NCBI GenBank assembly: GCA_947598485.1
Contig: CANQFJ010000005.1
Span: forward strand, 3,387 to 67,386
Origin: an uncultured Bacilli bacterium
GTDB taxonomy: Bacteria; Bacillota_I; Bacilli_A; RF39; UBA660
Direction: 5' to 3'
DNA length: 64,000 nucleotides
This document shows positions 1,987-37,891 of the stretch, piece by piece. Both the position numbers and the translations under genes were made by a program. Numbering within the stretch: the stretch's first letter is position 1; every line of letters starts with the position of its first letter. The notes beneath the pieces are model-generated. The model worked only from the letters and a program-made list of their open reading frames with translations. It was not told the origin of the DNA and ran no database searches.

Positions 1987-2016
1987 TTTCAAACACACTT
2001 CTAAACACACTTTTTT
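1987..2016 (+). repeat. 30-bp direct repeat TTTCAAACACACTTCTAAACACACTTTTTT (two AAACACACT 9-mers), candidate integrase arm-type site
   Basis: Near-identical 29-bp copy at 39731-39759 in the same orientation. Overlaps the integrase stop codon. Confidence 0.55.
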
Positions 2017-3112
2017 ATAATCTGTTTAATAAATTAGTAACATTATCAAGTTCATTTTTAAACATATGAGTATATGTATTTAAGGTAATAGATATATTGC
2101 TATGGCCTAAATATTTACTAACTAAAGCAATAGTTGCACCTTTATTGATTAAGAGTGATGCACAACTATGTCTAAAATCATGTACTCTTATTCTTTTTAA
2201 ATTTGCATTATCACAATAATTATTTTTTCTTTTTTGAATTGTCGTTTCTTTAAAAGGTTCTGTATTACCAAAAACAAACCAATTGTCAGAATAATCTTTA
2301 TAGCTTATAGCCTTTTTATACATTGTTTTTAAGTCATCGACAACTTTTTTTGTCATAGGCAGTATTCTATTACTTTCTTTAGTTTTTGGACTTGAAATAG
2401 TCCATTTTTCACCCTTAATCTTTGTAGTTAAGGTTTTATTAATATTTATTTCATTGTTTTCAAAATCAATGTCATTCCAGGTTAAGGCTTGAGCCTCTCC
2501 TTGCCGTAACCCATTAAAATAAAGTATTTCAAAAAAAGTATGGTAATCATGGTCTTTAATTACTGCATCAAATTTTAAATATTCTTCATATGTAAAAAAT
2601 AACATTTCTTTTTTTCTCTCGTTAGTATTTTTAAATGGTTCAATATATGTCAATAAAGCTTTACTAGTATTATAGTATTTATTGGAATAAATTATAATTT
2701 GTTTTAGTAATCCTAGAATTTTATTATTATAATCTGTAGTAAAGTTTAAATTTTCAATATAAGTAAGCAACTTTTTATAATCCGCCAGATTTAATTCGTT
2801 TATTTTTTTATTTTTAATAGAAGATAAATGGCCATATAAATAACCATTTTTTATAATAGTTTGCTTTTTGTAAGTTTTAGATTTTGCAAGTGATAATTCT
2901 TGGTATACCTGATCTATCGTAATATTAGCTGTACAAATATCAGAATTAGCAATTTTTATTCTATATCGAGCTTCTTCGCTTGTTGCTTCTTTTAATGTTT
3001 TAAATTTTTGCGATGTATAGTCATGTAATTCTCCAAAAATATCTTTATACTTTATTCTAAAAAAATATTGTCTACCATCTTTTGTAGAAATTTTACTTTT
3101 ATAAACCGCCAT
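2015..3112 (-). CDS. int: tyrosine recombinase / phage integrase
   Basis: 365 aa. C-terminal catalytic region with HDFRHSCASLLI and LGHSNISITLNTYTH (R..HxxR..Y pattern). N-terminal SAM-like/arm-binding region. Adjacent to the tRNA. Confidence 0.9.
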   Translation of the reverse strand: MAVYKSKISTKDGRQYFFRIKYKDIFGELHDYTSQKFKTLKEATSEEARYRIKIANSDICTANITIDQVYQELSLAKSKTYKKQTIIKNGYLYGHLSSIKNKKINELNLADYKKLLTYIENLNFTTDYNNKILGLLKQIIIYSNKYYNTSKALLTYIEPFKNTNERKKEMLFFTYEEYLKFDAVIKDHDYHTFFEILYFNGLRQGEAQALTWNDIDFENNEININKTLTTKIKGEKWTISSPKTKESNRILPMTKKVVDDLKTMYKKAISYKDYSDNWFVFGNTEPFKETTIQKRKNNYCDNANLKRIRVHDFRHSCASLLINKGATIALVSKYLGHSNISITLNTYTHMFKNELDNVTNLLNRL

Positions 3113-15863: not shown

Positions 15864-16358
15864 ATGGCCCAAGGAGTAAAAACTGATAATAAAAAAATAG
15901 CCGAAATTATAACTAGCTATACACTAACCAACAACTATAATAAGACTGCTAAAGAACTTGGCGTATCTGCTAACACTGTTAAAAATATTATTAATAAGCA
16001 AAAGAAAGAAAATGGTGAAGCTTTTGCGAAACTTTGCGAAGAGAAAAAAGAACTATTTGAAACCAAAGCAAATAGGATCATTGATAAGGCTTTAGAATTA
16101 GTAGAAGATAGAATAGATACTGCTAAAGAGAATCAAGATGCCTTGGAAGAAATAATTCAAATGGTATGGGAACAAGATAAAAAAAATTTAAATGAAACCC
16201 AAAAGAAATCAATTGTAAACAAGATTAGTAAGATGCAATTAAATAGTTTATCAGAGTTAACAACTGCTTTAGGAACACTATACGATAAAATGAGATTAGC
16301 TAAAGGCGAATCAACTGTCAATGATAAGTTTGAGGTAAATATTAAAGTGGTAGACTGA
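15864..16358 (+). CDS. terS: terminase small subunit
   Basis: N-terminal HTH NKTAKELGVSANTVKNIINK. Immediately precedes and overlaps terL (ATGA-type junction). Confidence 0.7.
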   Translation: MAQGVKTDNKKIAEIITSYTLTNNYNKTAKELGVSANTVKNIINKQKKENGEAFAKLCEEKKELFETKANRIIDKALELVEDRIDTAKENQDALEEIIQMVWEQDKKNLNETQKKSIVNKISKMQLNSLSELTTALGTLYDKMRLAKGESTVNDKFEVNIKVVD

Positions 16359-17731
16359 TGGACTTAACAATAACTAAAAAGCAACAATTATTTATTAATT
16401 CTCCTGCATTTGAAACTTTATTCGGAGGTGCAGCAGGTGGAGGTAAGAGCTATGGACAATTAGTCGATAGCTTTTTATATGCATTAAAGTACCCTAAAAG
16501 TAAACAAATTATCTTCCGTAGAACTTTCCCTGACTTAGAGAAAACTCTAGTAAGGGTAAGCCTGGAACTCTATCCAAAGTCAGTTGCTCAATATAACTCA
16601 AGCAAACATACTTGGACATTTAAAAATGGTTCAATTATAGATTTTGGCTATATAGATAGTGAGAAAGATGTTTACCAATATCAATCAGCAGAATACGATG
16701 TTATTAGATTTGATGAATTAACACATTTTACTGAATATATGTATACATATATGATTTCAAGATGCCGTGGAGCAAATGGCTATCCTAAAGCAATAAAAAG
16801 TTCTACTAACCCAGGAGGTATTGGCCATACTTGGGTTAAAAAGAGATTTATTGATATAGGAGCTCCTAATGAAGTTCACGAATGTGAATTAGATAGTGGT
16901 AGTACAGTTACAAGGATATTTATTCCAAGCCTAATAGCAGATAATCCATTTATTCTCAATAATGATCCTGACTATATAAAAAGGCTTGATAACTTATCTG
17001 AAAAAGACCAAAAAGCATTAAAATATGGCGACTGGGATATATACGATGGCCAATACTTTAATGAATTTGCGAGGAGAATACATGTATGCAAGCCATTTGC
17101 TATACCAGAGCATTGGAACAAGTACATATCTATGGATTATGGGCTTGATAAGTTCGCAGTTTTATTTTTTGCAATCGATGAAAAAGGTACAGCCTATATC
17201 TATAACTATATTCATAAAGAGAATCTTATTGTATCTGAAGCTGCTCAAACTTTAAAAAGTTATATGAGAAAAGATAGATTTAGAGATATATATGCTCCAA
17301 GTGATTTGTGGGGAAGAAACCGTGATACAGGTAAAAGTACATACGAAATATTCCTAGATAACGGAATTAACTTAACTCAAGCAAGCCGAGATAGAATACC
17401 TGGATGGTTAGCGGTTAAAGAGTGGCTAAAAGTGTTAAAAGTAAGAGATGAACAAACTGGACAGGTAAAAGAAATTAGCCATTTGGTTATCTTTGACACG
17501 GTAGAGCCATTAATTGAGTATCTACCACAAATACAACACGATGAAAAGAATCCTAATGATTGTGCAATAGAACCGCATGAATTAACACATATATGCGATG
17601 CACTTAGATACTTTTGCATAAGCAGAACTAATGCAGCTAGGCCAATTGTTAATAAAGAAGATACATTTACCGATATATTTAAAGACACTTCTCATTATGT
17701 TGACTATGGGGAAGAAATAAAAGTAATTTAG
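16358..17731 (+). CDS. terL: terminase large subunit
   Basis: Walker A GGAAGGGKS, Walker B-like VIRFDELTH, C-terminal nuclease region with acidic residues. 457 aa. Confidence 0.9.
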   Translation: MDLTITKKQQLFINSPAFETLFGGAAGGGKSYGQLVDSFLYALKYPKSKQIIFRRTFPDLEKTLVRVSLELYPKSVAQYNSSKHTWTFKNGSIIDFGYIDSEKDVYQYQSAEYDVIRFDELTHFTEYMYTYMISRCRGANGYPKAIKSSTNPGGIGHTWVKKRFIDIGAPNEVHECELDSGSTVTRIFIPSLIADNPFILNNDPDYIKRLDNLSEKDQKALKYGDWDIYDGQYFNEFARRIHVCKPFAIPEHWNKYISMDYGLDKFAVLFFAIDEKGTAYIYNYIHKENLIVSEAAQTLKSYMRKDRFRDIYAPSDLWGRNRDTGKSTYEIFLDNGINLTQASRDRIPGWLAVKEWLKVLKVRDEQTGQVKEISHLVIFDTVEPLIEYLPQIQHDEKNPNDCAIEPHELTHICDALRYFCISRTNAARPIVNKEDTFTDIFKDTSHYVDYGEEIKVI

Positions 17732-18023: not shown

Positions 18024-19712
18024 GTGGATACTAAAGAACTGCAAGAAACTAGAATTTGGGATTTATATGAGAAACATGTTAATTTTATGCATCAAAAACA
18101 TATATATTCCGATACTGATTTAAACAACCGTATGTACAATGGCGACCAATGGTATGGATTGAAACTTAAAGATGCTGAAAAGATACAACTAAACTTTATA
18201 AAGCAAGTAGTAAAACAAAAAGTATCTACTATTACTTCTAACTTGTTTGCAATAAATTATAGCCCTGAAAATGTGGAAAACCCAGACTTTTATGATATGG
18301 CTCAAAAGACATGTGATTTGCTTAATAAAAAAGCTTCTAAAGTATGGGACAAGGACTACATGGATAAGAAGATAAAAAAAGTAGCAAAAAAAGCTGCAAT
18401 AAATGATGAAGCTATAATCTATGTTACTTACGATTTTGAAAATAATAGTCCCTTAAATGAAGTCCTTTCAAAAAATGATGTAATGTATGGAAATGAAAAT
18501 GAAGATGAAATCCAATTACAACCTTATATTTTGATTAGACATAGAATGACTTTAATTGAGATAGAAAACATTCTTAAAGAAGAAGGATTATCAGAGGAAC
18601 TTTTAAAACTAGTATCTACTGATAATGACAATTCTACTGCAGCAGGTTTAGATGCTAAATTTGAAGTAGAAGATAAAGTTTGGGTGATTACTAAACTATA
18701 CAGAAAAGATGGAACTATTCACTTTAGCCAAGCTACTAGATATGTAGATCTAAAAAAGGATAGAGATACAGGCTTAACATTATATCCGCTATCTCATTAT
18801 AATTGGGAAGATGAAGAAGGAAATGCTAGAGGAGTAGGAGAAGTAAGGAATCTTATTCCTAACCAATTAGAAGTAAATAAAATAGCAATGAGAAGAGCTA
18901 TTACTTCTAAAAACATTTCTTATCCACAAAGAGTAGTAAACGAAAATGCAGTTGCTGATAAAGGCAGTGTTAATAAAGTTGGTGCAACAGTATGGTTTAA
19001 AGATATGGGGAATACTAAAGCAAGCGATGTGTTTATGACTACTAGCCCTGGCCAAATAGGTGTTGATAGTGAAAAGCTACAAAGTGAACTTATTACCTTA
19101 TCTAGAGATTTAAACAACGCCGGAGATGCTACAACTGGTAATATAGACCCAGAGAGTGCAAGTGGTAGAGCTATTCTAGCTGTACAAAATGCACAAAATC
19201 AACCTTTAACTGAGCAAACAATAGGCCTAAAGTTCTTTATAGAAGATTTAGCCCGAATTTGGTTTGATATGTGGAAAACCTATGCTTCTGATGGCCTTCA
19301 AATTGAAGTGGAAAATACCGATGCTACAACAGGCCAAACTTCTTTAGCACTTCAAACGATTCCAAGTTATATTTTAGAAGAATTAAATGCAAGTGTAAAA
19401 GTAGATATAACACCTAAAGGTGCTTACGATAAATACGCTCAAGAACTTTCATTAGAGAATATGTTTACTAATGGCAAAATAACTTTTGAGGAATATGTTG
19501 ATTCACTAGATCCAGATAGTGTTATGCCAAAGGCAAAACTAGAAAAGATTATGAGAGATAGACAAGAAGCTCAAAGACAAATCGATGAGATAGAACAACA
19601 AGCTCAAGCAATGAAAAACCAATCTCAAATGGAAATGTTTAACCGAAGTGAAATAGAAAATATTGCTAATCAAGGCAATCAGTTAATAAATCAAGCTATG
19701 CAAGAAGCTTAA
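18024..19712 (+). CDS. portal protein
   Basis: 562 aa, directly after terL, with a Q/E-rich coiled C-terminal tail. Called on size and position. Confidence 0.7.
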   Translation: MDTKELQETRIWDLYEKHVNFMHQKHIYSDTDLNNRMYNGDQWYGLKLKDAEKIQLNFIKQVVKQKVSTITSNLFAINYSPENVENPDFYDMAQKTCDLLNKKASKVWDKDYMDKKIKKVAKKAAINDEAIIYVTYDFENNSPLNEVLSKNDVMYGNENEDEIQLQPYILIRHRMTLIEIENILKEEGLSEELLKLVSTDNDNSTAAGLDAKFEVEDKVWVITKLYRKDGTIHFSQATRYVDLKKDRDTGLTLYPLSHYNWEDEEGNARGVGEVRNLIPNQLEVNKIAMRRAITSKNISYPQRVVNENAVADKGSVNKVGATVWFKDMGNTKASDVFMTTSPGQIGVDSEKLQSELITLSRDLNNAGDATTGNIDPESASGRAILAVQNAQNQPLTEQTIGLKFFIEDLARIWFDMWKTYASDGLQIEVENTDATTGQTSLALQTIPSYILEELNASVKVDITPKGAYDKYAQELSLENMFTNGKITFEEYVDSLDPDSVMPKAKLEKIMRDRQEAQRQIDEIEQQAQAMKNQSQMEMFNRSEIENIANQGNQLINQAMQEA

Positions 19713-19936: not shown

Positions 19937-20779
19937 ATGGAAGATGAAATCCAAAATGTAGTTGAAGAAACCACTGAAAATACTGTGGAACAACCAGCAG
20001 AAGAAGTTGTTGAAGGTGCGGAGTTATCAAACGCCGCTGAAGCAGAGGAAACAACTGCTGAAGAAACTAAAGAAGATAACAAAGGCCGCTATATGACTGA
20101 GGAAGACATTAATAAGCTAGTAGATCGAAGAGTTGCTAGAAAGATGTCTAAACTTGAGGAAGATTATGATAGGCGAATGGCCGATTATAACGATACCAAA
20201 GCCATATTAGAGGCGGGATTAGGAACTTCTGATATAAAAGAAGCTAATCAAAAGCTAAGAGAGTTTTATCGTGGAGAAGGCTATGAAGTGCCTGACTATA
20301 AACCAACTTATACTAAACGAGAAAATAAAATCTTAGCAGAAGCAGAAGCAAATGAATTTATTGAAGATGGTTACGATGCCATGCTTAATGAAGCTAATAA
20401 GTTAGCTGCAAAAGGCTATGACAATATGGATGAAAGAGAAAAAATCATTTTCACTAAATTAGGAGAAAAGCTTACTGCTGAAAACGATAAAAAAGCTCTT
20501 CGCCAATTAGGTGCTAAAGAAGATTTAATTAATGATGAAAATTTCAAAGAATTTAGAAATCAATTTAAGTCCAATACACCTATGGAAAAAATATATGCCT
20601 TGTATAAAGGCATTCAACCTAAAACAAAGGTTGAAAATCCAGGTAGTATGAAAAATACTCCTACAAAAGAAGCTAAAGATCGATATACCGATGAAGAAAT
20701 AGCAAACCTTACCTTAGATGATCTAGATAAGCCAGGTGTTTTTGAAGCGGTAAGAAAATCAATGACTTCTAACAATTAA
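19937..20779 (+). CDS. scaffolding protein
   Basis: 280 aa with a very acidic N-terminus and helical K/E-rich body, between portal and capsid genes. RBS TAGGAGG. Confidence 0.6.
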   Translation: MEDEIQNVVEETTENTVEQPAEEVVEGAELSNAAEAEETTAEETKEDNKGRYMTEEDINKLVDRRVARKMSKLEEDYDRRMADYNDTKAILEAGLGTSDIKEANQKLREFYRGEGYEVPDYKPTYTKRENKILAEAEANEFIEDGYDAMLNEANKLAAKGYDNMDEREKIIFTKLGEKLTAENDKKALRQLGAKEDLINDENFKEFRNQFKSNTPMEKIYALYKGIQPKTKVENPGSMKNTPTKEAKDRYTDEEIANLTLDDLDKPGVFEAVRKSMTSNN

Positions 20780-20801
20780 AGAAAGAGAGGAAAGATAGCT
20801 C

Positions 20802-21635
20802 ATGGATGGAGCAAAACAAACAATATGGCATAAGGCTTATGAAAGAGCTTTAGAGACCATTACAAGTTTAAGAAATCACTGTGATTTCAAATATGAAAAA
20901 GATAGTAAAAATGCAAAGGAGGTAAAGGTTCTTAACGCAGTAAGACCTACAGTTAAAAAGTATGTACCTGGCACTAAGATTGATAGAGAATCTATTAGTG
21001 CAACTGATATGACTTTAAAACTAGATCAATTCTATTATTTTAATATTTCAATTGATGATGTTGTTAAAGCTCAATCAGTACCTGGTGCTATGGAAGCAAC
21101 TGCACAAGAAGGTGCTATTGCATTATCAGAAGAAGGCGACAAATATGTTGCAGAAGTTGTTAAAACTGGTGTAACTAATGAAGATATTGCTGCAGTAGAT
21201 AGTATTACACCTTCAAAGGCTAATGCTATTGAACATATCGAAAACGGTTTTGCAGTTTTATATGGTAATAACTGCAAAGTTAGTGAAAATTATTGGCTAG
21301 AAGTAGATCCTACTTACTACAAATATATTAGACCATCTATTACAGAGTTATTAACTAACAATGTAGAGATGGCTAAGAAAGGTATTGTTGGTAAGTATGG
21401 TAATGCTAATATCACTATTGAAAACCTATTACCTCACGATGAAACAGATGTTTATAATATCTTAAGAACTGAACATGCTATCGCTTTTGCTGAGCAAATT
21501 AATAAAGTTGAAGCATATAGACCTCAAGATGCATTTGAAGATGCTTTAAAAGGGCTTTATGTTTTCGGTGCATTACTTGCTAGAAAAGAAGAAATCGTAG
21601 TTCTTAAAACTAAGAAACCTGGTTTAACACCCTAG
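20802..21635 (+). CDS. major capsid protein (short, 277-aa form)
   Basis: Position after the scaffold, A/G/V-rich composition with higher-GC codon use. Ends ...KKPGLTP at CCC TAG. Confidence 0.65.
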   Translation: MDGAKQTIWHKAYERALETITSLRNHCDFKYEKDSKNAKEVKVLNAVRPTVKKYVPGTKIDRESISATDMTLKLDQFYYFNISIDDVVKAQSVPGAMEATAQEGAIALSEEGDKYVAEVVKTGVTNEDIAAVDSITPSKANAIEHIENGFAVLYGNNCKVSENYWLEVDPTYYKYIRPSITELLTNNVEMAKKGIVGKYGNANITIENLLPHDETDVYNILRTEHAIAFAEQINKVEAYRPQDAFEDALKGLYVFGALLARKEEIVVLKTKKPGLTP

Positions 21636-22221
21636 TAAGCCCGAAAAGGGCGAAATTAACTCTGTAACAGTTAATGTATCTTCTGGAAATTTAAAAGTTT
21701 CAGAAGCAGTAGCCGATAAGGAAATAGGCTCTATCTCTGTTGATGGCGGAGAGGAGCCTTATTCTTATGAGTTAACTGGTACAGATGCTGATAAGTTTAA
21801 AGTTGAAGAAACTAAAGTAAAAATTAAAGAAGCTTTAACTGAACCAAAAACTTATACAGCAAAAGTAAAGGTTACTGATAAAAACCAAAAAGAAAAAGAA
21901 AGCACTGATTTTAGTGTAGAAGTATCAGCAGATGATCCTGAAATAACTTCAATTACAGTTACTCCTGAACAAGGATTAACGGATCCAGTTACTGTTGATG
22001 CTAAGGTAGCTAGTTTAAGTTGTGAAGGTGGTACACCAGAATACACTTATTCTTTAGCTGGAGGTACTGATGATGAAAAATTTAAAATCGATGGTACTGA
22101 AGTAAAAGCAAGTCAACAACTAACAGAAAATACTTATACAATCAAAGTTAAAGTAACAGATAGTAAGACAAAAGAGAAAACCTCAGATGATGTAACTATA
22201 ACTGTTAGCAGTGCTGAATAG
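21634..22221 (+). CDS. Ig-like double-domain C-terminal extension of the capsid protein, read in the +1 frame (no own start codon)
   Basis: Frame 1 is open from 21628 to the TAG at 22219-22221. All 195 sense codons were checked by hand and none is ATG, GTG or TTG. There are two ~90-aa repeats with the pattern GG.P(Y/E)(S/T)Y.L.G.D..KFK....V......TYT.KVKVTD. Confidence 0.6.
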   Translation, partial: SKPEKGEINSVTVNVSSGNLKVSEAVADKEIGSISVDGGEEPYSYELTGTDADKFKVEETKVKIKEALTEPKTYTAKVKVTDKNQKEKESTDFSVEVSADDPEITSITVTPEQGLTDPVTVDAKVASLSCEGGTPEYTYSLAGGTDDEKFKIDGTEVKASQQLTENTYTIKVKVTDSKTKEKTSDDVTITVSSAE

Positions 22222-22240
22222 AGGCTTAATGCCTCTTTTT
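22221..22240 (+). terminator. rho-independent terminator after the Ig-like extension
   Basis: GAGGC-TTAAT-GCCTC followed by TTTTT. Confidence 0.6.
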
Positions 22241-22300
22241 ATCGTGTAAAAAGTATAATTGGTGCAACTCCAATAACACGACCAAGAAAGGATTTATATT

Positions 22301-22672
22301 ATGGAAAAGATTGAATATTACACTTTAAGACCTAATTTAAAACAAATTTACGGAAAGAAAGTAACAAAAAATACTGCCTTTAATGAAAAAACTGAAGATG
22401 GCACTGTTACTCAAGAATTTAAAAACTTAACATTAACCACAAGAATAAATAAAAAGAATAAAGTAGGGCAATACGAAATAGAAGAAAAGTCCGAAATGAA
22501 AGTAAAAGTGCCCGAAGGAACAATATTAATTTGGGATGAGCAAGAGGGCTTTATAGTTCCTCAATATCAAATGTGTACTTTAGATGAATTACAAAAAGAA
22601 ATAGAAGATATTCAAGACATTTATAAGGGTGATGATAATGACACTAAGGGAAATGAAAATAAAGACATTTAG
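22301..22672 (+). CDS. hypothetical virion protein (123 aa)
   Basis: First gene after the capsid terminator. RBS AAAGGA. Confidence 0.45.
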   Translation: MEKIEYYTLRPNLKQIYGKKVTKNTAFNEKTEDGTVTQEFKNLTLTTRINKKNKVGQYEIEEKSEMKVKVPEGTILIWDEQEGFIVPQYQMCTLDELQKEIEDIQDIYKGDDNDTKGNENKDI

Positions 22673-26160: not shown

Positions 26161-29100
26161 ATGGGTATAAATCTAGGAGAAATACGGCAAAAAAATTTAA
26201 CAACAGGATCAACTAGCCCAAGATTAAGTGGACAAATTACCACCGGTACCACACCATATAAACAATCTTCAAGTCTCAACAGAAATTCAGCGGATTATAA
26301 GAAAACGGTCCTAGATATAAAAAAGAATCAACTTTCTGAGGCCAACTCTAAATTGAGAAATTATATTTCTGAAAATGTCGATAGTCAATTGAAGACTCCG
26401 GGACAAATAAAAACAAAAAACTATAGTGTTCCATTCCAAAAGCCGGTATCTAAAATAGACCTCGTAGATTCAGCAAAAAAATATGATGAGCAATTGAAAA
26501 ATTTATATTCAACAGAGACATATAAATCCTTAAAAGAAAATGTTGATAAACTGAGTAAAGAAGAAAATTTAGCCTATAGAGAATATAAAAAATCTATAGA
26601 AAAAGATGAATTGCCTTGGTATAAAACCATATTACAAACTCCTGAAGCTTTTAAAGATGGTTATGATTTTGGTGATGTAACTAAAACAGTCTTATCTTCC
26701 GCAGGTGATCTTGCGTTAGAAACCATCGGTGGGATAACATCCTTGGGTGATTCAGGTGCAAAACTTATTGCTAGTGCTGGAGCTCAAATAGGTGATTGGT
26801 TAGGCTTTGATGATTGGGCAGATGAAGTTAGATACAAAGTGGCAGGAAAAAGCGAAAATGTCAATAAATTGCTAAAAAAATGGACACCTTCAGGATGGGT
26901 AGATACTGCTAAAGATGAAGTAAATAAGAATAGTGTATTTGGAAATTCGGTGGATGAAGTAATGCAAGGAGCCGGATATTATGCAGGTATGTTGGCTTTA
27001 CAAAGTGTTGGTGTCCCTTGGGAAGCAACCACTGCGGTAAGTGCTGCCGGTAATGAATTATCAGAAGCTTATGCAAACGATGCTACAGACATTGAGGCTT
27101 GGGTTAGTGCGACAAATTCTGCCGCTTGGGAAGTTGCAAGTGAACTACTTTCTGGTGGTATAAAGTTACCCGGTACAGGTAAAGCTTTAGATGGGGTTTT
27201 TTCTAGTCTAACTGAAAACATAAAAAATAAAACTGCTAAATTCCTTTTAGAAGCTGGCTATCAAATGGGTGGCGAAGGTCTAGAAGAAGTGATTTCAGGA
27301 TTAGGCAGTTCAATTGGGAAAAAATTAACCTATATGAGTGATAAAGATTTTGCTGAGATATATTCTAAAGAGGATGCCTTAAAAGATTTTGTCATAGGTG
27401 GAGCGGTTGCAGGATTGACTAATTCAGTTAACCCAGCTACTTGGCATAATATAAGTTCAGGCAAAAGTTTATTAACAGGTAGAACTTCAGAAGAAGCTAA
27501 GAGTAGAAATGAAACAATACAAAAGCTTTCTACTGAAGCTGAACAAAGCAAAGGTAGAAAGTTAAACCCTAAAGAAAAGGCAGATATAGAGGACTATGTC
27601 GATGGAGTGTTGTTAGATAAGCTTTATTCCTTAAAAAATGACTTAGAGGCAGCAGAAGAGGCCACCGAAAAATCTTCTTTAACAAAGGAAATAGAAGATT
27701 TACAAAATAAGATTACGGAAATTGTTTCAAGTACAAAGTCATTAGATATTTTACAATATCAATTGAGTGGCCAAAATCAAGTATCGCAAAATTCTATAAT
27801 GAATACACAAACTTTTACTACGGGTAATGAGAATGCAATTAACTCTATGTTAGTTCAAAATGGTGTTAAGAATAGCATAGCACCTCAACAAAATGTAAAT
27901 CCATCTAATCAAGTATTTCAATTTACGAAAACAGGAAATACTAAAGTAGATAATTTCTTACAATCTGCAGTAAATAGTCGTTTCAATAATACTAAACAAT
28001 CACAAGATTTTTTAAATAGTTATTCAAAGATAATAAAAGATAAAGGATATAATGTCATATTTGATTCTACAATTAATAAAAATGGCAAAAGTGTAAATGG
28101 TCAAATAACTGCTTTAAAAAACGGAGAAGTAGAAATAAGAATAAATCCTAACTCTAATACTTCTGGAGAGTTCTTAATTGTTCACGAAGTTACACATGCC
28201 GTAGAAAATGAAGGATTAACTGACTTTATTATAAAATATGCCGAACATCACGATGATTTTAAAGCTGCACTTCAAGATAAAATGAATCTTTATGGAACTG
28301 ATCAAGTTACAAGTGAAGTTGTAGCGGATATTTCAGCTCAAGTTCTTGGCAATCAAGAATTTATAAACAGCTTAGTTATGGAAAATACTACTCAATCAAA
28401 AACAATAATTAGAAAGATATATGATTCAATAAAGAGATTGGTAAATACTTTTACAAGTGAGGGCAGATACAAAAATTTTGTTCAAGATTTAGAGCAAAAA
28501 TGGAGAGAGGCGTACAGAACAATTACTCAAGAGCAAGCTGTTAGTAATTTAAATAACGAAACTAAATTTGCAACACAATTTAAAGATATTTTGTTGAGAA
28601 ACAAAAATTTAAATAGTAATTCTAGAATTCCTATTGTAAACTCTAACGAAAAAGTAGTTACTACATCACAGAATTCTATAAGATTACAAAATGATTTTAA
28701 AAATAATGTTAAAACTGGTGTTTATAAAAATAAAGCGACAGGTTATGAAACATCCATCGATTCAGATACAAAAGGAAAAATTTTAAGGCCAAATGGTATT
28801 AAGACTGCTACTACCACACAGGATTATATATTAAGAATGATTAGTGCTAATAATTTACCTACATTGTTTGAAAATGCTGTTTACATTGATACTTTAAAAC
28901 CTATGAAAAATAAAGCAAGCAACCCTAATGAATTGGGATATCATCATTTTTTAGCTCCTATTTATATAGACGGAACTTTTTATAGAGCATTAATAACTGG
29001 TAAAGAAAAACAAAATTCAAAAAAGTTATATTCTTTAAATGTTGAAATTTTGACACAAAAAAATGGAAGTACTCCGTTGGCAAACGCAAATAGCGGATAC

Positions 29101-32100
29101 CAATTAAGTGGAATACTTCCAACTGACATGAGTATATCAGATTTAGTTAAAGGTGTCAATATTTTTAATTATGACACCGGTCAATATCAAACATACAATG
29201 ATACTGACATTAAATATTCTATGCAAGAAAGTGTAAATAATACACAAGATAGTCAAGGTAGAGAGTTATCTAAAAACCAACAAGAATATTTTAAAGATAG
29301 TGTATTAAGAGATGAAAACGGAAATTTACAAGTTTATTACAATGGCGGTGGAGATTACACTTCTTTTGATAATACTAAAATGTCAGACCAAAGCAAGTGG
29401 GGAAAAGGAATATACCTTTCTAAATATCAAGAAGTGAGCCAGTTGTATGGGGATAATATAAAAGAAGTATATGCTAATATTACTAATCCTTTAAGTTCAT
29501 CAGAAAAGACAATATCTTTTGAACAATATAACGATTTATATCAGTCATTATTTGAAGGAGAAGAAGCTTATCAAGAGGAATATGATATGTATTCCAATGA
29601 CTTGGACTTATTATGGGATATTACTGATAAAGGAAATTGGGCAGACTATGCTGATGAGATAAAAAAATACACAGGTAAAGATGGAATCGTTATTAATAGT
29701 GAATCTAAAGCAGATGATATGGCTATTGCTTTTCAATCTAATCAAATAAAAAATGTAGATAATACAAGTCCTACAACTAATAATGATATAAGATATTCTC
29801 AAAACTCCAATAAATGGCAACAATATTTAGAAAAACATTATAAAGCAACAGGTACTAGAACTAATATGAACTCTATTAAAGCTCCAACAAGAAATAAAGG
29901 GCTAGATAATAGTTCTTTTTCTTTTGATCAAAAACAATCTAATAAACCTGTTTCAAATGAACAGGTAAAAGCAAATGATACTCCATTAAATCCAAAGCAA
30001 CGTAGATGGGTTAAAACATCTACTGAAAGTAAAACCATTAAAGGGAAAGTTTTAATAGAAAATTTAGACTATGCTAAAACAAATTATGTTGTTAGAAGTA
30101 ATAAAAGCACATTAGAATCCGCTAATTCTAAATTAGAATCTTTAGGATATGAAGATTCAATATCATATATAAGAAGTAAAATGAGTGACAAAAAAATCGA
30201 TTTAGAAGATATAGCTTTAGCAGAAAGGCTAATTCAAGAATCGATAAAAAATGGAGATGCCAAAACTGCTAGTGACTTAATAATGGATGTAGCTATTTTA
30301 GGTACCGAATTAGGACAAAAAGTACAAGCGTTATCTATAATTCAAAAACTAACTCCAGAAGGGCAACTTGCTATGTATCAAAAAATTGTATCAAGAGCAA
30401 AAGCAAAGGGCGAGAAAGCTTACACGGATGTAAATATTACTCAAGATATGACAGATACCATATTAGGTGCTTATAACGAAGATGGCACTTACGATCAAAA
30501 TGATTTAAATGAAAGAGTAGAAATTTTTAAACAACAAGTTGCAGAACAATTAAAAAGTAGTAAGTCCGAAAAAATTAATGAGTGGAGATATTTAAGCATG
30601 TTAGGTAATCCTAAAACTCATATTAGGAATATGGTCTCTAATTTAGCTATGACAGGCACAATTAAAGTTAAAAATGCAATGGCTAGGACAGGAGAGGCTA
30701 TAGCATCAAAATTGACTACAATTGAAAGAACTAAAACCTGGAAGAAATCAAGCGATACTGTAACAAACTTTGCAAAGCAAACGGCTGAAGAGATGAAAAG
30801 TGTTATTTCTGGTGAAAGTAAATATGGTGAAAAAGCTTCAATAGAGTCTAAAAAACAAGTTTTTAAAAGTAAAACTTTAGAGAGAATCAGTGATTTTAAT
30901 AGTAATGCACTTGAAGCAGAAGATTGGTTTTTTAGCAAAAGAGCATTTCAAAATTCTTTTAGTGAGTATTTAACTGCCAATGGAATAGAAACTCAACAAG
31001 ATATAACCAATAATGCAAAACTTATTGAAAAAGCTAAATTATATGCCGTTGAACAAGCAGAAATAGCTACGTTTAGACAATATAGTAAATTAGCTAGCTT
31101 AATTAATAAATTTGAAAGAAATAACAAAGTGGCGGGACTAGCAATAGGAGCTACTATACCTTTTAAGAAAACACCTATTAATGTAGCTAAAGCAGGTGTT
31201 AACTATTCTCCTATTGGTTTAATAAAAAGCATAAGTTACGATGCTTTTCAGTTACATAAAGGGAATATAAATGCAAGTCAATTTATAGACAATGTTTCTC
31301 AAGGAATGACTGGAACAGCATTAACATTGTTGGGGTATGCTCTTGCAAAAGCAGGCTTTGTATCTGGTGCAGGAGATGATGACAAAGAAGGCAAGATGGA
31401 TTACTATTTAGGCAATCAATCATATTCTTTAAAGTTTGGAAAGACAACATTTCCAATAAGTTGGGTTTCACCTGTTGCCATGCCTTTCTTGGTTGGAGCT
31501 AATGCATATGAAAAATTAGAAAATCAAGAAGAATGGGATGCTAATATTGTTATCGATACATTAGCACAAACTTTAGATCCTTTGAGCGAAATGTCTTTCA
31601 TTTCTAGTTTAACAGATGTACTGCAATCTTATAACCAAGGCTCATTTAAGATGCTTTCATCTATGGGTACAAAAGCAGCACAAAGTTACATTGGACAATT
31701 TTTTCCAACTTTATTTAGCCAAATAGCCGCTACCTTTGATGACACAAAAAGATCAACATCAGCATCTAAGAACAGTTCGTTTAAAGTAGCAGAGGAAACT
31801 GTAAGGCAGATAATGTATAAAATACCTGGTTTAAGGAATATGTTGGAGCCAAGCACTAATATATGGGGTGAAGAACAAAAACAATCGGATAACATATTTG
31901 TAAGAGCGTTTAATAACTTTATAAATCCATCTTCTCCTAAAAGCTATGCACCAACGAAATTAGAAAACGAATTAAAAAGAGTTTATAGAGAAACAGGTGA
32001 CTCTAGTGTTATACCTGGCATTCCTTATGGCAACATAAAATACAAAGGAATAAACTATCAAATGTCGTCTGAAGAATATACAAAATACAAAAAAACTTAT

Positions 32101-32898
32101 GGCCAAAATGCTAAACAAAAACTAACAGCATTGATAGATAATGATGATTATAAGAAAGCAACTGATGAACAAAAAGCTAAAATGATAGATCAGGTATTTG
32201 ATTTTTCAAAAGCTATTGCTAATGAGGAATACTTTAAATCAATTAAAATCGACTTTTCTAGTGACAATCTAAAAACGATAAAGGAATTGAAAGAGTTAGG
32301 CTTTAGCGACAAAACTATTATTGATTATACTGCAAAATATGCGATTATTAATTCAATTAAGCAAGACAAAACTTTGACAAGCGAGCAAAAGCAAAAGAAT
32401 ATTGCAAGTGAATTAATAAATAGCAACTTTAATAATAAAGAACTAGCATATATGTATGATAAAGCAGGCTACTCTAAAAAAGAAAAATTAGATGCATTAA
32501 TAACTATGAACATTCCTATTAAAGAATTTATAAAATTGGATAGTTCAGATATTAGCAGTGACTACGATACAAGTACAGGCAAGGCTATAACTAATTCTAA
32601 GAAAAATAAATACATTAAATATGTGGATAGTTTAAAGCTTTCTACACCTCAAAAAGCTATTTTAATAAAAATGCAATATAACTCATATAACAATTACAAT
32701 GATCAAATTGTAAAATACATAGATAGCTTAAAAGAGACAATAAATGATAAAAAAATATTGCTTACTAGGATAGGATTTGATGATTACAGAAAAGAGGTTA
32801 TTAATTATGTGATGTCGAAATACAAAAATCCAGAAGAAAGAATTGAAATGTTGAAACAACTAGGATACACAATTAGAAACGGAAGGGTGTATTGGTAA
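26161..32898 (+). CDS. giant 2245-aa multidomain virion protein with zincin HExxH motif and glycine-rich hydrophobic segments (polyvalent-protein-like / ejection protein)
   Basis: Uninterrupted ORF with RBS AGAGGAGG. HEVTH at nt 28183-28197. Hydrophobic G/A-rich stretches at about 26950-27450 and 31300-31510. Several distinct globular regions. Confidence 0.8.
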   Translation: MGINLGEIRQKNLTTGSTSPRLSGQITTGTTPYKQSSSLNRNSADYKKTVLDIKKNQLSEANSKLRNYISENVDSQLKTPGQIKTKNYSVPFQKPVSKIDLVDSAKKYDEQLKNLYSTETYKSLKENVDKLSKEENLAYREYKKSIEKDELPWYKTILQTPEAFKDGYDFGDVTKTVLSSAGDLALETIGGITSLGDSGAKLIASAGAQIGDWLGFDDWADEVRYKVAGKSENVNKLLKKWTPSGWVDTAKDEVNKNSVFGNSVDEVMQGAGYYAGMLALQSVGVPWEATTAVSAAGNELSEAYANDATDIEAWVSATNSAAWEVASELLSGGIKLPGTGKALDGVFSSLTENIKNKTAKFLLEAGYQMGGEGLEEVISGLGSSIGKKLTYMSDKDFAEIYSKEDALKDFVIGGAVAGLTNSVNPATWHNISSGKSLLTGRTSEEAKSRNETIQKLSTEAEQSKGRKLNPKEKADIEDYVDGVLLDKLYSLKNDLEAAEEATEKSSLTKEIEDLQNKITEIVSSTKSLDILQYQLSGQNQVSQNSIMNTQTFTTGNENAINSMLVQNGVKNSIAPQQNVNPSNQVFQFTKTGNTKVDNFLQSAVNSRFNNTKQSQDFLNSYSKIIKDKGYNVIFDSTINKNGKSVNGQITALKNGEVEIRINPNSNTSGEFLIVHEVTHAVENEGLTDFIIKYAEHHDDFKAALQDKMNLYGTDQVTSEVVADISAQVLGNQEFINSLVMENTTQSKTIIRKIYDSIKRLVNTFTSEGRYKNFVQDLEQKWREAYRTITQEQAVSNLNNETKFATQFKDILLRNKNLNSNSRIPIVNSNEKVVTTSQNSIRLQNDFKNNVKTGVYKNKATGYETSIDSDTKGKILRPNGIKTATTTQDYILRMISANNLPTLFENAVYIDTLKPMKNKASNPNELGYHHFLAPIYIDGTFYRALITGKEKQNSKKLYSLNVEILTQKNGSTPLANANSGYQLSGILPTDMSISDLVKGVNIFNYDTGQYQTYNDTDIKYSMQESVNNTQDSQGRELSKNQQEYFKDSVLRDENGNLQVYYNGGGDYTSFDNTKMSDQSKWGKGIYLSKYQEVSQLYGDNIKEVYANITNPLSSSEKTISFEQYNDLYQSLFEGEEAYQEEYDMYSNDLDLLWDITDKGNWADYADEIKKYTGKDGIVINSESKADDMAIAFQSNQIKNVDNTSPTTNNDIRYSQNSNKWQQYLEKHYKATGTRTNMNSIKAPTRNKGLDNSSFSFDQKQSNKPVSNEQVKANDTPLNPKQRRWVKTSTESKTIKGKVLIENLDYAKTNYVVRSNKSTLESANSKLESLGYEDSISYIRSKMSDKKIDLEDIALAERLIQESIKNGDAKTASDLIMDVAILGTELGQKVQALSIIQKLTPEGQLAMYQKIVSRAKAKGEKAYTDVNITQDMTDTILGAYNEDGTYDQNDLNERVEIFKQQVAEQLKSSKSEKINEWRYLSMLGNPKTHIRNMVSNLAMTGTIKVKNAMARTGEAIASKLTTIERTKTWKKSSDTVTNFAKQTAEEMKSVISGESKYGEKASIESKKQVFKSKTLERISDFNSNALEAEDWFFSKRAFQNSFSEYLTANGIETQQDITNNAKLIEKAKLYAVEQAEIATFRQYSKLASLINKFERNNKVAGLAIGATIPFKKTPINVAKAGVNYSPIGLIKSISYDAFQLHKGNINASQFIDNVSQGMTGTALTLLGYALAKAGFVSGAGDDDKEGKMDYYLGNQSYSLKFGKTTFPISWVSPVAMPFLVGANAYEKLENQEEWDANIVIDTLAQTLDPLSEMSFISSLTDVLQSYNQGSFKMLSSMGTKAAQSYIGQFFPTLFSQIAATFDDTKRSTSASKNSSFKVAEETVRQIMYKIPGLRNMLEPSTNIWGEEQKQSDNIFVRAFNNFINPSSPKSYAPTKLENELKRVYRETGDSSVIPGIPYGNIKYKGINYQMSSEEYTKYKKTYGQNAKQKLTALIDNDDYKKATDEQKAKMIDQVFDFSKAIANEEYFKSIKIDFSSDNLKTIKELKELGFSDKTIIDYTAKYAIINSIKQDKTLTSEQKQKNIASELINSNFNNKELAYMYDKAGYSKKEKLDALITMNIPIKEFIKLDSSDISSDYDTSTGKAITNSKKNKYIKYVDSLKLSTPQKAILIKMQYNSYNNYNDQIVKYIDSLKETINDKKILLTRIGFDDYRKEVINYVMSKYKNPEERIEMLKQLGYTIRNGRVYW

Positions 32899-34688: not shown

Positions 34689-37001
34689 ATGAACGAAATA
34701 AAATTAAAAGTAAATTTTGAAAAGCGAACTCTCACAAAAATAGGAGTCGATTTAACAGTTAATGATTATAACTCTACAAAACTAGTTTTTGAATTCGATA
34801 AACCAGAAGGCACAAAAGTTTTTGAAATGACTAATCCTTCTGGTGAATTGATTCTTTTACAAACAATAGAAAATAACGAGGTAATTTTAACAGGCAAAAC
34901 GGAAGAGGGAAAAGATGCATCACTTTTTACCGAAGAAGGACAATATATCTTCGAAATAAGCTTATATGATGGAGATAGTAAACTTACTTCTGCAAGTGGA
35001 AAGTTAAGAGTAAAAGCTGAACAGGTCCAGGTAAACGGTGAGGTAGTAACTCAATACCTCCCAATGTTTGATGAACTGTTATCAAAAGTTAGAGAATCAG
35101 TTCAAGAAGTAAATACTTTAAAAGAAAAAGTAATCGAAGATGTAACAACATTAAAAAATAATGTAGTCGAAGAAGTAAATACATTAAAAGATAATGTTAC
35201 AAAAGATGTAAACGAACTTAAGGATACAACAATTAAAGATTGCGCCTCAGCAAGTGAAAATGCTAATGAAATGGCTAACAAAGCCTCACAAGCAGCAGAA
35301 GGAGCGGAAAGCGCTACTGCATCCGCCAATGATGCCATAAGGCAAATGGAAAACATAGATATTACTGTTGATAAAGTAGATACAACTTCCACTGTCACAA
35401 TCACTGACAAACAAGGTCAGTCAAAATCAGTTGAGATTCTAGATGGAAAAGTTGGTCCCATTGGTCCTCAAGGGATTCAAGGCAATGTAGGTCCAACAGG
35501 CCCGGCACCAATTTTAGACATAGGAAATGTCGAAACAACTCTTCCAAGTGAAAATGCTAAAGTTACCATATCTGGTGGAGAAGGCAAGTATACACTTAAT
35601 TTTTCGATACCACAAGGAATACAAGGTGAAAGAGGAGAAATTGGACCACAAGGGCCTAAAGGCGACCAAGGTTTAGTAGGGCCTCAAGGAGATACTGGCC
35701 CACAAGGCCCACAAGGATTAACAGGTAATGAAGGACCTGTTGGACCACAAGGTGAAAGAGGGTTACAAGGAGATAAAGGAGAAAAAGGGGACAAGGGAGA
35801 TCCTTTTACTTATGATATGTTTACTCCTGAACAATTAGAACTCCTAAAAGGCCCTAAAGGAGATATGGGTGAAACAGGTCCAAAGGGAGATGCAGGTAGT
35901 GCGTTTACTTATGACATGTTTACTGAGGAACAATTAAAAGCTTTAACCGGCCCACAAGGACCTCAAGGTGAACCTGGCGCAACTGGTGTGCAAGGGCCTG
36001 TCGGACCAGAGGGACCAAGGGGTGAACAAGGCCTTCCAGGAGAAGTTGGACCACGAGGAGAAAAAGGAGACGCCTTTACTTATGCAGACTTCACACCTGA
36101 GCAGTTAGAAGCTCTTAAGGGTCCAAAAGGCGACAGAGGTGAAGAGGGCCCACAAGGACCCACTGGACTTCAAGGACCGACTGGCAACCCTGGGGCGGAT
36201 GGAGCACCTGGTAAAGATGGCGTTAGTCCTACAATTTCTACCGAAGATATAGAAAATGGCACAAAAGTCACAATAGTTGATGCTCTAGGCTCAAAAGACT
36301 TTACAGTATTAAATGGTAAAGATGGCGCTCCTGGACCTCAAGGACCTGAAGGACCAGTTCCTAAAAAGGTTTCAGAGTTTGAAAATGATGCAAAATATGT
36401 TGATGAAGATTATGTAAAAGGCTTATCTACAAATCCAATTACCTCAGGTTTATGGACACACGAAGGATTGCCTGGAACTACTGATGCAGTATTGAAAATT
36501 AGGTGTAATAATGACTATCTTTTAGCAGGCGGTGATGTTGCTTCTAATTTCCGTGTTTGGAATAAAGCAGTTGTATTTGCAGAACAACCTATATTTGAAA
36601 AAGGATTTCAATTACAAGGTGTGCAAAGTGAATTAAAAGGTAACATGAGTAGATTGTGGGACTTTCAATATGTCGATGCAACTTCCCCTTGGGCTCCCCA
36701 CTGTGGAGTATTTACAGGCTCAGATTTTAATGATGGTTCTATAACGGATACTAATCATAATTTCGTATGTATAAATACGCAAGTAGATCGAGTAGGTAAT
36801 CCTAATACTCGTTGGTCTTACCAAGCTTTTGATAAAGATGCTGAGGAAAATCTAACTCGTAATTTCGGTGTTAGATGCGATGGTGTTCTTTTCACAAATG
36901 GCAATGTAGTTCCTGCATTTATAGAAGCCCGTAGCGAAGCTGAATTAAAAAGCTTAAGTGCATCTAATCCAAATGCCGTTTACTACACTGCAGAGGAATA
37001 A
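34689..37001 (+). CDS. collagen-like tail fibre
   Basis: 770 aa. Long G-X-Y tracts ([17 protein letters not shown]...) with three conserved FTY.(M/D)FT.EQL..L.GP.G interruptions, an N-terminal 11-residue-type repeats and a globular C-terminus. Confidence 0.8.
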
Positions 37002-37003
37002 TT

Positions 37004-37891
37004 ATGCTAGCAATTAATAACAAAAAAATAAGCAAATTATACATCGGGGGCAAAGAGGTAACTTCTATGTATATCGCGGGGCAAAAAATATATAAATCCG
37101 GTCTAAAAATTGTATCGTTTCACGATGGCACGGATGCAGAAATATCTGCGATGTTAGACGCACACTACAGCGGGCAAATTAACATAAGCGACTATTGGAA
37201 AGTTGGAGATACAAGAGTGATACATATTGATGCAACTAATAGTGGTACCAAGCCCCATGTTGCACAAAATATGACTATAGTTATATATGGATTTGACCAC
37301 GATAATTTGTCTTCTCGTATAGGTAACCGAGAAAAAGCCGCAGTTACGGTTGGGTTTAGAGAGGCTTTAGGGTTTAATGGAAGTAATGAAAATGAATACT
37401 ACTGGGGTAGTTCGCGTAGCCTAGTTAATAATACTGATAATTATCCAGATAGTCCTTTAAGAACTTGGTTAAACGGCAGTTTATTAAATGCTATGCCGAG
37501 TACCTTTAGTTCTTTAATAAAAGAAGTCCAAAAATGGAATTTAGCAATGCACACGGATTATATTCCATTAATATCTTTAGAAAAAATATGGTTATTAAGT
37601 TATCCCGAAGTTTTCGGCCAAGTCATATATACACATTATATAAATGGCGGAAGTGTAGGAGAATGGGAAGGTACTCAATATGATTATATGAAAACTTCTT
37701 CAAATAGAATGAAAAAAGCAAATAATAATGGAGCGCCGGGGTCTAGTGGAGCATACTACTGGTTAAGAAGCCCTAGTTCACGTGGTGATAGTTATGGTGG
37801 ATTTTTTTGGTGTTGTGTGGGTACAGATGGCACCGCCTATAGTTATGGTGGCACCGTAACTAGGGGTTTAGCTCCAGCATTTTGTTTGTAA
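37004..37891 (+). CDS. putative receptor-binding/tail-fibre-associated protein with YWLRSP motif (DUF6273-like, tentative)
   Basis: 295 aa. AYYWLRSPSS motif, G/Y/W-rich C-terminus, and position after the fibre gene. Confidence 0.4.
   Translation: MLAINNKKISKLYIGGKEVTSMYIAGQKIYKSGLKIVSFHDGTDAEISAMLDAHYSGQINISDYWKVGDTRVIHIDATNSGTKPHVAQNMTIVIYGFDHDNLSSRIGNREKAAVTVGFREALGFNGSNENEYYWGSSRSLVNNTDNYPDSPLRTWLNGSLLNAMPSTFSSLIKEVQKWNLAMHTDYIPLISLEKIWLLSYPEVFGQVIYTHYINGGSVGEWEGTQYDYMKTSSNRMKKANNNGAPGSSGAYYWLRSPSSRGDSYGGFFWCCVGTDGTAYSYGGTVTRGLAPAFCL

Follow-up and report, generated by a model that had tools for sequence, protein, structure and literature searches.

The capsid gene and a start-less frame that overlaps it

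We analyzed the 3' end of a major capsid gene in a prophage of an uncultured Bacilli bacterium (RF39, UBA660; assembly GCA_947598485.1, contig CANQFJ010000005.1, positions 3,387 to 67,386 of the forward strand). The whole 64,000-nucleotide (nt) stretch is referred to as the window, and all coordinates are those of the window. At this locus the capsid gene is followed, in the +1 reading frame, by an open reading frame (ORF) that has no start codon and encodes two immunoglobulin (Ig)-like repeats, here termed the extension (Table 1). The capsid ORF matched the PHROG family phrog_267 ('major head protein', E = 2.3e-28), was found by tblastn to be 27-32% identical to annotated major capsid proteins of Clostridium, Streptomyces and Mycobacterium phages, and is positioned after a P22-like portal gene and then a scaffold-sized ORF. 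By the phrog_267 and tblastn matches, the gene upstream of the junction is a major multi-copy virion protein gene, as is typical of the CCC_stop class of frameshift sites considered below.

Table 1. Features of the window, in order of position.
Feature	Coordinates	Strand	Remarks
tRNA-Arg(CCG)	1861-1937		adjoins the prophage integration point
Tyrosine integrase	2015-3112	-	
Large terminase	16358-17731		
P22-like portal	18024-19712		
Major capsid protein gene	20802-21635	+	0 frame, 277 amino acids, C-terminus ...KKPGLTP*; from the ORF listing
ACA (Thr), predicted E-site codon	21627-21629	+	first conserved junction position; ACA in 16/17 and ACT in 1/17 junctions
Predicted shift site CCC_UAG	21630-21635	+	rare Pro codon in P site, stop in A site; CCU at 21631-21633 in +1
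+1-frame extension ORF	21631-22221	+	CCU re-pairing codon, 195 codons, TAG stop; own start codon absent
3-nt spacer TAA	21636-21638	+	also second 0-frame stop; length fixed, sequence free across relatives
GC mini-hairpin GCCC-GAAAA-GGGC, candidate 3' stimulator	21639-21651	+	-6.6 kcal/mol; stem invariant in 17/17
Ig-like repeat 1	21649-21933	+	shared cargo domain of the cassette; 73-88% amino acid identity to 16 other loci
Possible second hairpin ATTAACT-CTGTAAC-AGTTAAT	21655-21675	+	weakly supported; in the minimum-free-energy fold of most relatives
Ig-like repeat 2, PKD/cadherin-like	21934-22218	+	Pfam PF22352 K319L-like_PKD and Cadherin
Intrinsic terminator AGAGGC-TTAAT-GCCTCT and T-run	22220-22241	+	closes the capsid transcription unit after the extension
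2245-amino-acid ORF	26161-32898		sole Pfam match LPD3 (large polyvalent protein-associated domain 3)
770-amino-acid ORF	34689-37001		collagen triple-helix repeats, E = 1e-25
DUF6273 protein	37004-37891		next after the 770-amino-acid ORF

Direct reading of the sequence agreed with the initial annotation that the capsid gene ends in ACA CCC TAG: the last codons are ...GGT TTA ACA CCC TAG, with CCC at 21630-21632 and TAG at 21633-21635. In the +1 frame, a TAA at 21625-21627 is followed by an open stretch of 197 sense codons, which runs from 21628 to a TAG at 22219-22221 and from which ATG, GTG and TTG are all absent. A frame free of these three codons from 21628 to 22221 had been described in the initial annotation and was upheld by the reading frame check; the figure of 195 sense codons given with it is right for the codons that would be translated after re-pairing on CCU, not for the length of the open stretch. 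The predicted fusion is 277 + 195 = 472 amino acids (aa) long. The 0 and +1 frames overlap by 8 nt and, because the +1 frame opens just 5 nt before the capsid stop, a shift between them must fall within 21628-21635. Around the stop, the -1 frame stays open over no more than 17 codons, and it closes after 10.

When all six frames of the window were searched for stop-free stretches of at least 150 codons without an early start, the extension alone was detected. Based on composition, the probability that 197 codons stay open by chance is ~1e-8 and that no start occurs among them ~2e-5. A single copy of the full junction motif is present in the window, compared to an expectation of 0.00. CCC makes up 4.5% of the Pro codons of the prophage, and the only one of 54 prophage ORFs to end in CCC-stop is this capsid gene. 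The extension ORF was left uncalled by gene callers both in the window and in the related locus L085.

Conservation of the junction among relatives of the extension

Relatives were collected by homology search with the extension protein, and loci from a scan for the junction pattern were pooled in, to give 17 non-redundant junctions from rabbit-gut metagenome-assembled genomes (MAGs; 'Lapin', uncultured Bacilli), ENA assemblies and Logan runs. Because the extension protein was the query, this sample is unbiased as to the sequence of the junction; the pattern-scan loci L087, L089 and L091 were recovered again by the protein search, and L090 carries the protein match P0126. All 17 loci were found to read AC[A/T] CCC TA[G/A] NNN GCCC-N5-GGGC GA[A/T] AT[T/C] AA. 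... CTGTAACAGTTAAT. The stop was TAG in 15 loci and TAA in 2, and the spacer triplet was of seven kinds (TGA, TAA, CGA, CTT, GGC, TAT and CAA). The GCCC-N5-GGGC element started 3 nt after the stop in 17/17, its stem constant and its loop variable as the spacer is (GAAGA in 9, GAAAA in 7 and ACAAT in 1).

The gene upstream of the junction encoded a major head protein in 16 of the 17 loci, with just 24 upstream codons retained in the remaining one (L110). These capsids belonged to phrog_267 (the window), phrog_10 (three subfamilies of <30% identity, and a further phrog_10 member, L102), phrog_247 and phrog_544, and split into five groups that were mutually undetectable by BLASTP at E <= 1e-3. 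Between families, nucleotide identity was 35% at positions -51 to -7, 90% at -6 to +39 and 81% over the next 240 nt. The jump from 35% to 90% places the beginning of the homologous block exactly at the shift site (ACN CCC).

Start codons near the junction were absent from 6 of the 17 loci (the window and five others) and lay at inconsistent positions in the rest, and neither a conserved start codon nor a properly spaced Shine-Dalgarno sequence for the extension was detected across the 17 loci. For relatives' extensions, gene callers had predicted proteins of 222-249 aa, with starts at various places upstream or at the junction. In public records of the extension (L081-L084, at 4836-5138 in L081, and P0121-P0133), the calls start at arbitrary codons, either a TTG at the junction or an ATG or TTG inside the capsid overlap, with spurious N-termini such as MYYMKVLTTKKLLHPSEPEEG... 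and MWKALLPSKPEKG....

In the phage GenBank collection no match was found to the whole locus (blastn) or to the extension (tblastn), and the capsid part alone had distant relatives; a scan of JGI metagenomes with the domain profile detected no relative. A scan of IMG/VR proteins gave three matches at 40% identity, which lie inside giant jumbo-phage proteins and are uninformative on the junction. P0165, a 472-aa protein of the length predicted for the fusion that came from an exhaustive profile search, was set aside as coincidental, since it has an unrelated N-terminal domain and is encoded among tail genes, flanked by those for a lysozyme and a tape measure. Separately, the two-domain extensions of L097, L102, L103, L106 and L112 were observed to carry an extra C-terminal tail, ...DDNGPQIFDD..KKSKK, acidic and then basic, which is absent in the window.

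Capsid relatives with and without the extension

More than 1,900 relatives of the capsid protein were present in the database (1,962 matches), and the top 120, which were inspected, were all capsid-only calls of 264-282 aa. Likewise, at 80 IMG/VR capsid loci (47-77% identity) a terminator hairpin came directly after the capsid stop and a long +1 ORF was detected in 0/80; CCC is missing there as well. Closer to the window, the capsids of L081-L085 (92-94% identical) end in ACA CCC TAG NNN GCCCGAAAAGGGC, and the +1 frame continues with one Ig domain, whereas the capsid of L086 (95% identical) ends in AGT GCA TAG and a terminator, without extension and without CCC. On alignment of extension-bearing with extension-less sequences, homology was lost over the last two capsid codons and regained only at the T-run of the terminator. 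A second family behaved similarly, in that the extension-less L126 and L127, 80% identical to the phrog_247-type capsid of L103, end in ...KG TAG and lack CCC. Thus, the presence of CCC correlates with the presence of the extension: CCC_UAR was found in 17/17 homologs with an extension, the conservation that the initial annotation had called for, and CCC is missing from the close capsid relatives that have none.

Neither an in-frame capsid-Ig fusion nor a conserved separate gene was found among the top 120 of the 1,962 capsid matches or among the 13 extension matches. The ATG-initiated separate gene that the initial annotation had named as counter-evidence is likewise not a conserved feature of the relatives. 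One capsid of this collection was irregular: the Gp13-like capsid of L104 (730-1768) was called as two pieces (264 + 62 aa), and its near-identical counterpart in L103 (1980-3029) is a single 349-aa gene. Either faulty assembly or a true frameshift could account for the split.

Coding character and domain content of the extension

To judge by its substitution pattern, the +1 frame is under purifying selection, i.e., it is a selected coding sequence. Over 96 codons and 136 pairs, the ratio of nonsynonymous to synonymous substitution rates (dN/dS) had a median of 0.35 and a maximum of 0.64 (median dS 0.46, dN 0.15). Variable columns of the extension fell on codon positions 1/2/3 in the proportion 43/39/68, and the other two frames carried 135 and 291 stops across the 17 sequences.

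The two repeats, ~95 aa each, are 45% identical to one another (E = 5e-20). Repeat 2 matched PF22352 K319L-like_PKD at E = 1.3e-8 with 35.1 bits, exceeding the cut-off of 27 bits, and Pfam Cadherin at E = 1e-5, just under the gathering cut-off; PF22352 was also matched by 6 of 12 members of the extension family. The initial annotation's description of two Ig/cadherin-like repeats thus holds by their mutual identity and the Pfam match of repeat 2. A profile search of the PDB with the extension returned non-significant matches only, the best of them related to virions being 5lxk 'Decoration protein' (E = 0.15). More distant relatives of the domain were repeats in large, unannotated, surface-type proteins. 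A role of the Ig domains in surface adhesion or decoration is likely.

Transcription signals agree with the initial annotation as well, which had placed a terminator after the extension rather than after the short form: only one terminator-like site was detected in 20600-22400, at 22220-22236 with a T-run, 3' of the extension and not of the capsid stop.

RNA structure at the junction

The mini-hairpin GCCCGAAAAGGGC, noted in the initial annotation, is present at 21639-21651, 3 nt past the stop; its folding energy is predicted at -6.6 kcal/mol. Its stem uses CCC (the rare Pro codon) and GGC (21% of the Gly codons of the prophage), which are unchanged in 17/17, unlike Pro and Gly codons elsewhere in the extension domain, which vary. 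Within extension codons 1-14, all five fourfold-degenerate codons with an invariant amino acid lack synonymous change, compared to 3 of 12 later in the extension (p ~0.01, Fisher estimate). At the antizyme +1 site a 3' stimulator likewise lies 3 nt after the stop. A role of the mini-hairpin as a 3' stimulator is plausible but unproven.

The region of the possible second hairpin includes CTGTAACAGTTAAT, which is nucleotide-invariant among extension relatives. There, 91.6% of cells were paired; only one-sided changes, several disruptions and no covariation were seen. Two other candidate elements were rejected by eye, namely a pseudoknot between the loop and downstream sequence (GAAGA with CUUC), the pairing of which is not kept across the 17 loci, and an upstream Shine-Dalgarno-like stimulator, since such runs are present in some loci and absent in others.

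Probable programmed +1 frameshifting and its alternatives

The extension is very probably made by programmed +1 ribosomal frameshifting at the CCC_UAG shifty stop. The initial annotation had proposed a +1 slip of peptidyl-tRNA-Pro from CCC to CCU that yields a 472-aa capsid-Ig fusion; no other route fits the 8-nt overlap, and the comparative data support the proposal. In a fraction of the ribosomes that reach ACA CCC UAG on the major capsid mRNA, the peptidyl-tRNA-Pro would move from the rare CCC to pair with CCU, one base forward, before release factor acts on the UAG; we infer this slip and its efficiency. Translation would then go on with AGU AAG CCC GAA..., adding 195 residues that form two PKD/cadherin-like Ig domains at the C-terminus of the capsid protein. 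The outcome would be a mix of 277-aa and 472-aa subunits, with Ig domains on only some capsid positions and, probably, an adhesive function there.

A number of observations weigh against this interpretation or limit it. The case for this phage and its relatives is wholly comparative. In-frame ATG codons directly follow the junction in L109, L110 and L141, and low-level independent initiation may take place at these three. The very high identity at the junction could come partly from recent horizontal spread and not from selection on the RNA. As for the hairpin, its stem never varies among the 17 loci, so covariation, which would bear on its function, is absent and speaks neither for nor against it; any function is one that we infer. 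Folding of the 64-nt region was not better than that of shuffled sequences (z = -1.07). The GCCC-N5-GGGC hairpin is also absent from the SPP1 junction and from wider-family junctions such as those of L147, L180 and L189, and thus may be dispensable or kept only as Pro...Gly codons. An AlphaFold2 model of the extension (12-sequence alignment) was all beta-strand with ~7 strands per repeat at a low mean predicted local distance difference test (pLDDT) score of 47, so that the Ig-like fold rests on the Pfam matches and the strand pattern.

The same fusion would also result from another kind of +1 recoding, such as a short hop, a -2 shift or the reading of CCCU as a quadruplet by tRNA-Pro. The sequence fixes the place (21628-21635) and the change of frame but not the molecular route, and tRNA-Pro-derived suppressors can read CCCN quadruplets. 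Re-pairing by -2 of tRNA-Pro on CAC, or of tRNA-Thr, is however impossible with standard pairs. At the validated SPP1 site, the product is explained by slippage of the P-site tRNA from CCC to CCU while the stop waits (PMC6316719). A route other than this slippage is, in our estimate, very unlikely for the window.

If the extension were instead a separate decoration gene, it would have to begin at a non-canonical start, e.g., AUU at 21655 downstream of the purine-rich GAAAAGGG, or in some relatives at an ATG or TTG near the junction. The GAAAAGGG sequence at 21643-21650 does resemble the purine-rich ribosome-binding sites of neighboring genes and lies 4 nt before the ATT codon, and both the 222-249-aa gene calls of relatives and the ATG just past the junction in L109, L110 and L141 would fit a gene of this kind. 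The candidate starts are, however, scattered, with none in 6/17 and none with a properly spaced Shine-Dalgarno sequence; the candidate AUU Ile codon is ATC in three loci, and the conserved hairpin takes up the Shine-Dalgarno-like bases. Moreover, a free Ig protein would lack a capsid-binding part, and neither the constant +1 overlap with a capsid or tail-tube stop after CCC nor the lack of CCC in extension-less capsids would be explained. A separate gene is rated as very improbable indeed.

It is extremely unlikely that the extension is unexpressed, whether as what is left of a capsid-Ig fusion that was once in frame and was disrupted by an indel, or as an artifact of sequencing or assembly. 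One inserted or deleted base would bring the frames together, the sequence probably derives from a metagenome assembly, and the capsid gene of L104 appears split; yet the same out-of-frame junction recurs across 17 non-redundant loci that come from many independent samples and assemblers, and several of these loci were present in 3 to 8 contigs. The dN/dS of 0.35 at a dS of 0.46 indicates continuing selection on the +1 frame, and an in-frame version was not found among close relatives. Equally remote is termination-reinitiation, by which ribosomes would end at the UAG and restart nearby to give a free Ig protein coupled to capsid translation. Although the stop and the extension ORF overlap as tightly as coupled genes do, AUG, GUG and UUG are absent near the stop in the window and five other loci, the strictly conserved CCC would have no role, and the product would again have no capsid anchor. 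Read-through or reassignment of the stop codon was ruled out because the 0 frame meets TAA at once in the window and further 0-frame stops follow at once or within a few codons, and transcriptional slippage is unlikely, as the only homopolymer runs are the CCC and the loop AAAA (21644-21647), the loop varies, and conservation of CCC-stop would not be explained.

Relation to known recoding sites

Programmed +1 frameshifting as proposed here has direct precedents among phages. The gp17.1* protein of Bacillus phage SPP1 arises by a validated +1 frameshift at CCC_UAA, with a slip to CCU and a short:long ratio of 3:1 (PMC6316719). As predicted for the window, a rare CCC lies right before the stop of a major virion gene and the product is a sub-stoichiometric, C-terminal surface extension of Ig-superfamily type. 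The SPP1 site was read directly as GCT CCC TAA TGC GCCCCAGAA (GCT CCC TAA TGC GCC CCA GAA), which yields the +1 peptide NAPQNL..., an FN3 domain. When SPP1 (CCC TAA TGC GCC CCA GAA) was compared to the window (CCC TAG TAA GCC CGA AAA), the layout of stop, 3-nt spacer and GCCC was found to be shared, as was a +1 peptide of the form x-x-P-(Q/E). SPP1 differs in that the protein extended is that of the tail tube, the cargo is one FN3 domain, GCU precedes CCC, and the GCCC-N5-GGGC hairpin is missing.

In the lactococcal 936-group phage PhiC0139, an MTP-TpeX fusion made by +1 shifting at CCC.UAG was detected by western blot and immunogold labelling (PMC4759559). This shifty stop matches the CCC_UAG of the window exactly, and the host is likewise a low-GC Gram-positive; the protein extended is a tail protein and the cargo a carbohydrate-binding module, by contrast to the window. 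The +1 frameshifts of Listeria phage PSA, which the initial annotation had invoked as precedents, are confirmed in the literature: cps shifts on ACA_CCC and tsh on CCC_UGA, CCC being rare in the low-GC host (PMC5009743). PSA cps resembles the window in that a capsid protein is extended by a +1 shift on the same ACA CCC codon pair. Its A-site codon is, however, the sense codon UCC and its stimulator a pseudoknot, whereas at the window junction the A site is occupied by a stop and the conserved structure amounts to a 4-bp hairpin; a sense A-site codon and a 3' pseudoknot of the cps type were thus not found at this junction.

Other classes fit less of the anatomy. The capsid extensions of T7/T3 (10A-10B) and of Lactobacillus phage A2 are made by -1 frameshifting and are Ig-like in T3 and A2 (PMC5009743). 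These phages likewise form two capsid species from one gene, the longer of which is surface-displayed, but they shift in the -1 direction on slippery heptamers; at the junction of the window the -1 frame closes after 10 codons, and a long -1 ORF of the T7 kind is absent there. The prfB gene, encoding release factor 2 (RF2), is autoregulatory and shifts at CUU_UGA with the need of a Shine-Dalgarno-like sequence 3 nt upstream. It is alike in the +1 slip of a P-site tRNA that competes with termination at an A-site stop, and differs in that the window family has no upstream element conserved across capsid families (35% identity upstream), hence no prfB-type stimulator, and uses UAG or UAA as the stop. 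The rare CCC before the stop, the start-less +1 ORF and the co-occurrence of site and extension are all found here, and on these sequence features the case is placed with the CCC_stop +1 frameshifts of SPP1, PSA tsh and PhiC0139 as a predicted member.

A wider family of junctions with other genes and cargo

A scan of IMG/VR for ACNCCCTARNNNGCCCGAARA gave 8 matches, all 8 at the end of a long ORF finishing in ...TP*. Of the five shorter ORFs (150-203 aa), the four that were scanned are major tail proteins (phrog_88, phrog_238) and the fifth, that of L130, is closely similar to that of L129. The ORFs of L132 and L134 are HK97-like and of capsid size, and that of L135 lacks its 5' end but has the same capsid-like tail. 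Among genome_contigs, ~50 of 77 matches to the junction pattern were chance occurrences in high-GC genomes with short upstream ORFs, so that the pattern is undiagnostic without the context of a gene end. Low-GC rabbit-gut MAGs (Bacilli, Clostridia) added the capsid families phrog_422 and phrog_544 and a tail-tube-like protein. In these MAGs, other cargo was found directly behind an x-x-P-E-(E/K)-G linker, namely domains of the 'IKVSxPSxETSLNLGEKT' and 'KVTIxLPTG' types. In a Virgibacillus oceani contig, what follows the same junction is a short acidic tail. The wider-junction loci comprise L128-L135, L210 and L216 from IMG/VR, and L140, L141, L147, L180, L187, L189, L195, L200 and L171 from genome_contigs. 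Since upstream gene and downstream cargo both vary, the constant part is the junction, which behaves as a self-contained unit.

Across this collection, ACN CCC TAR N3 GCCCGAARA also ends tail genes of phrog_88, phrog_238 and phrog_820/3099 and capsid genes of phrog_422 and phrog_544, and the cargo behind it is of unrelated kinds, comprising FN3 domains, short acidic tails and a further two domains of ~125-135 aa.

In a further group of IMG/VR loci, L121 (stop at 1659), L132 (7920), L134 (5132) and L135 (328), an FN3 domain is apparently split across two ORFs. These capsids end in CCC TAA N3 GCCCGAAAA, and the +1 ORF is just 20-21 codons long, e.g., NKPEKLKASNTTDKQTKLTWD*. In L132, L134 and L135, an ORF in the same frame with a Shine-Dalgarno sequence and ATG follows 39-42 nt on and begins (L/T)YN(V/I)Y...; in L121 the gap is longer (~75 nt) and the second ORF starts at TTG. 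When joined, the two pieces covered positions 2-83 of Pfam fn3 (E = 8e-9, 1e-10); the second ORF alone covered fn3 positions 38-83, followed by a Big_2 domain. Such an arrangement could reflect gene fission, a second recoding event, or complementation of strands in which a capsid tail made by frameshifting pairs with a separate decoration protein.

Prophage setting

The capsid gene is contained in a podovirus-like prophage of ~37-38 kb (about 2000-39500; 30% G+C), and host-like genes resume from ~40 kb, with a DUF6020 membrane protein near 39995. The 2245-aa LPD3 ORF probably encodes a virion protein of the ejected internal or polyvalent kind, and the 770-aa collagen-repeat ORF probably a tail fiber.

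Implications

Frameshifting at CCC_stop is a known device, and what appears to be new is a conserved junction that seems portable between unrelated phage genes; no description of such portability was found in the literature searched. In a review of recoding, Ig domains are viewed as landing by non-homologous recombination, with frameshifting then arising by chance (PMC5009743). The present comparison suggests that exchange involves the expression signal together with the Ig-like domain and not the domain alone. We give even weight, for and against, to the possibility that the ~25-nt junction ACN-CCC-UAR-N3-GCCC(-N5-GGGC) is a self-sufficient recoding adaptor that moves horizontally with, or is recruited by, different cargo (PKD-like Ig, the 'IKVSxPSGETSLNLGEKT' domain, the 'KVTIxLPTG' domain, FN3 and short acidic tails).

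For annotation, gene callers miss the 195-codon ORF or start those of relatives at spurious codons, such that capsid-displayed, adhesin-like domains in gut prophages are systematically mis-annotated. At least five capsid groups unrelated by BLASTP, together with several tail-tube families that carry the same junction, provide a natural experiment on which signals suffice for a +1 shift. A compact element of ~25 nt, if functional, would be usable for sub-stoichiometric phage display in low-GC Gram-positive hosts. Were the adaptor reading true, the junction at the 3' end of any capsid or tail-tube gene would give partial display of cargo, and the expression of phage Ig-like domains by frameshifting would be a transferable module rather than a fresh accident with each non-homologous insertion.

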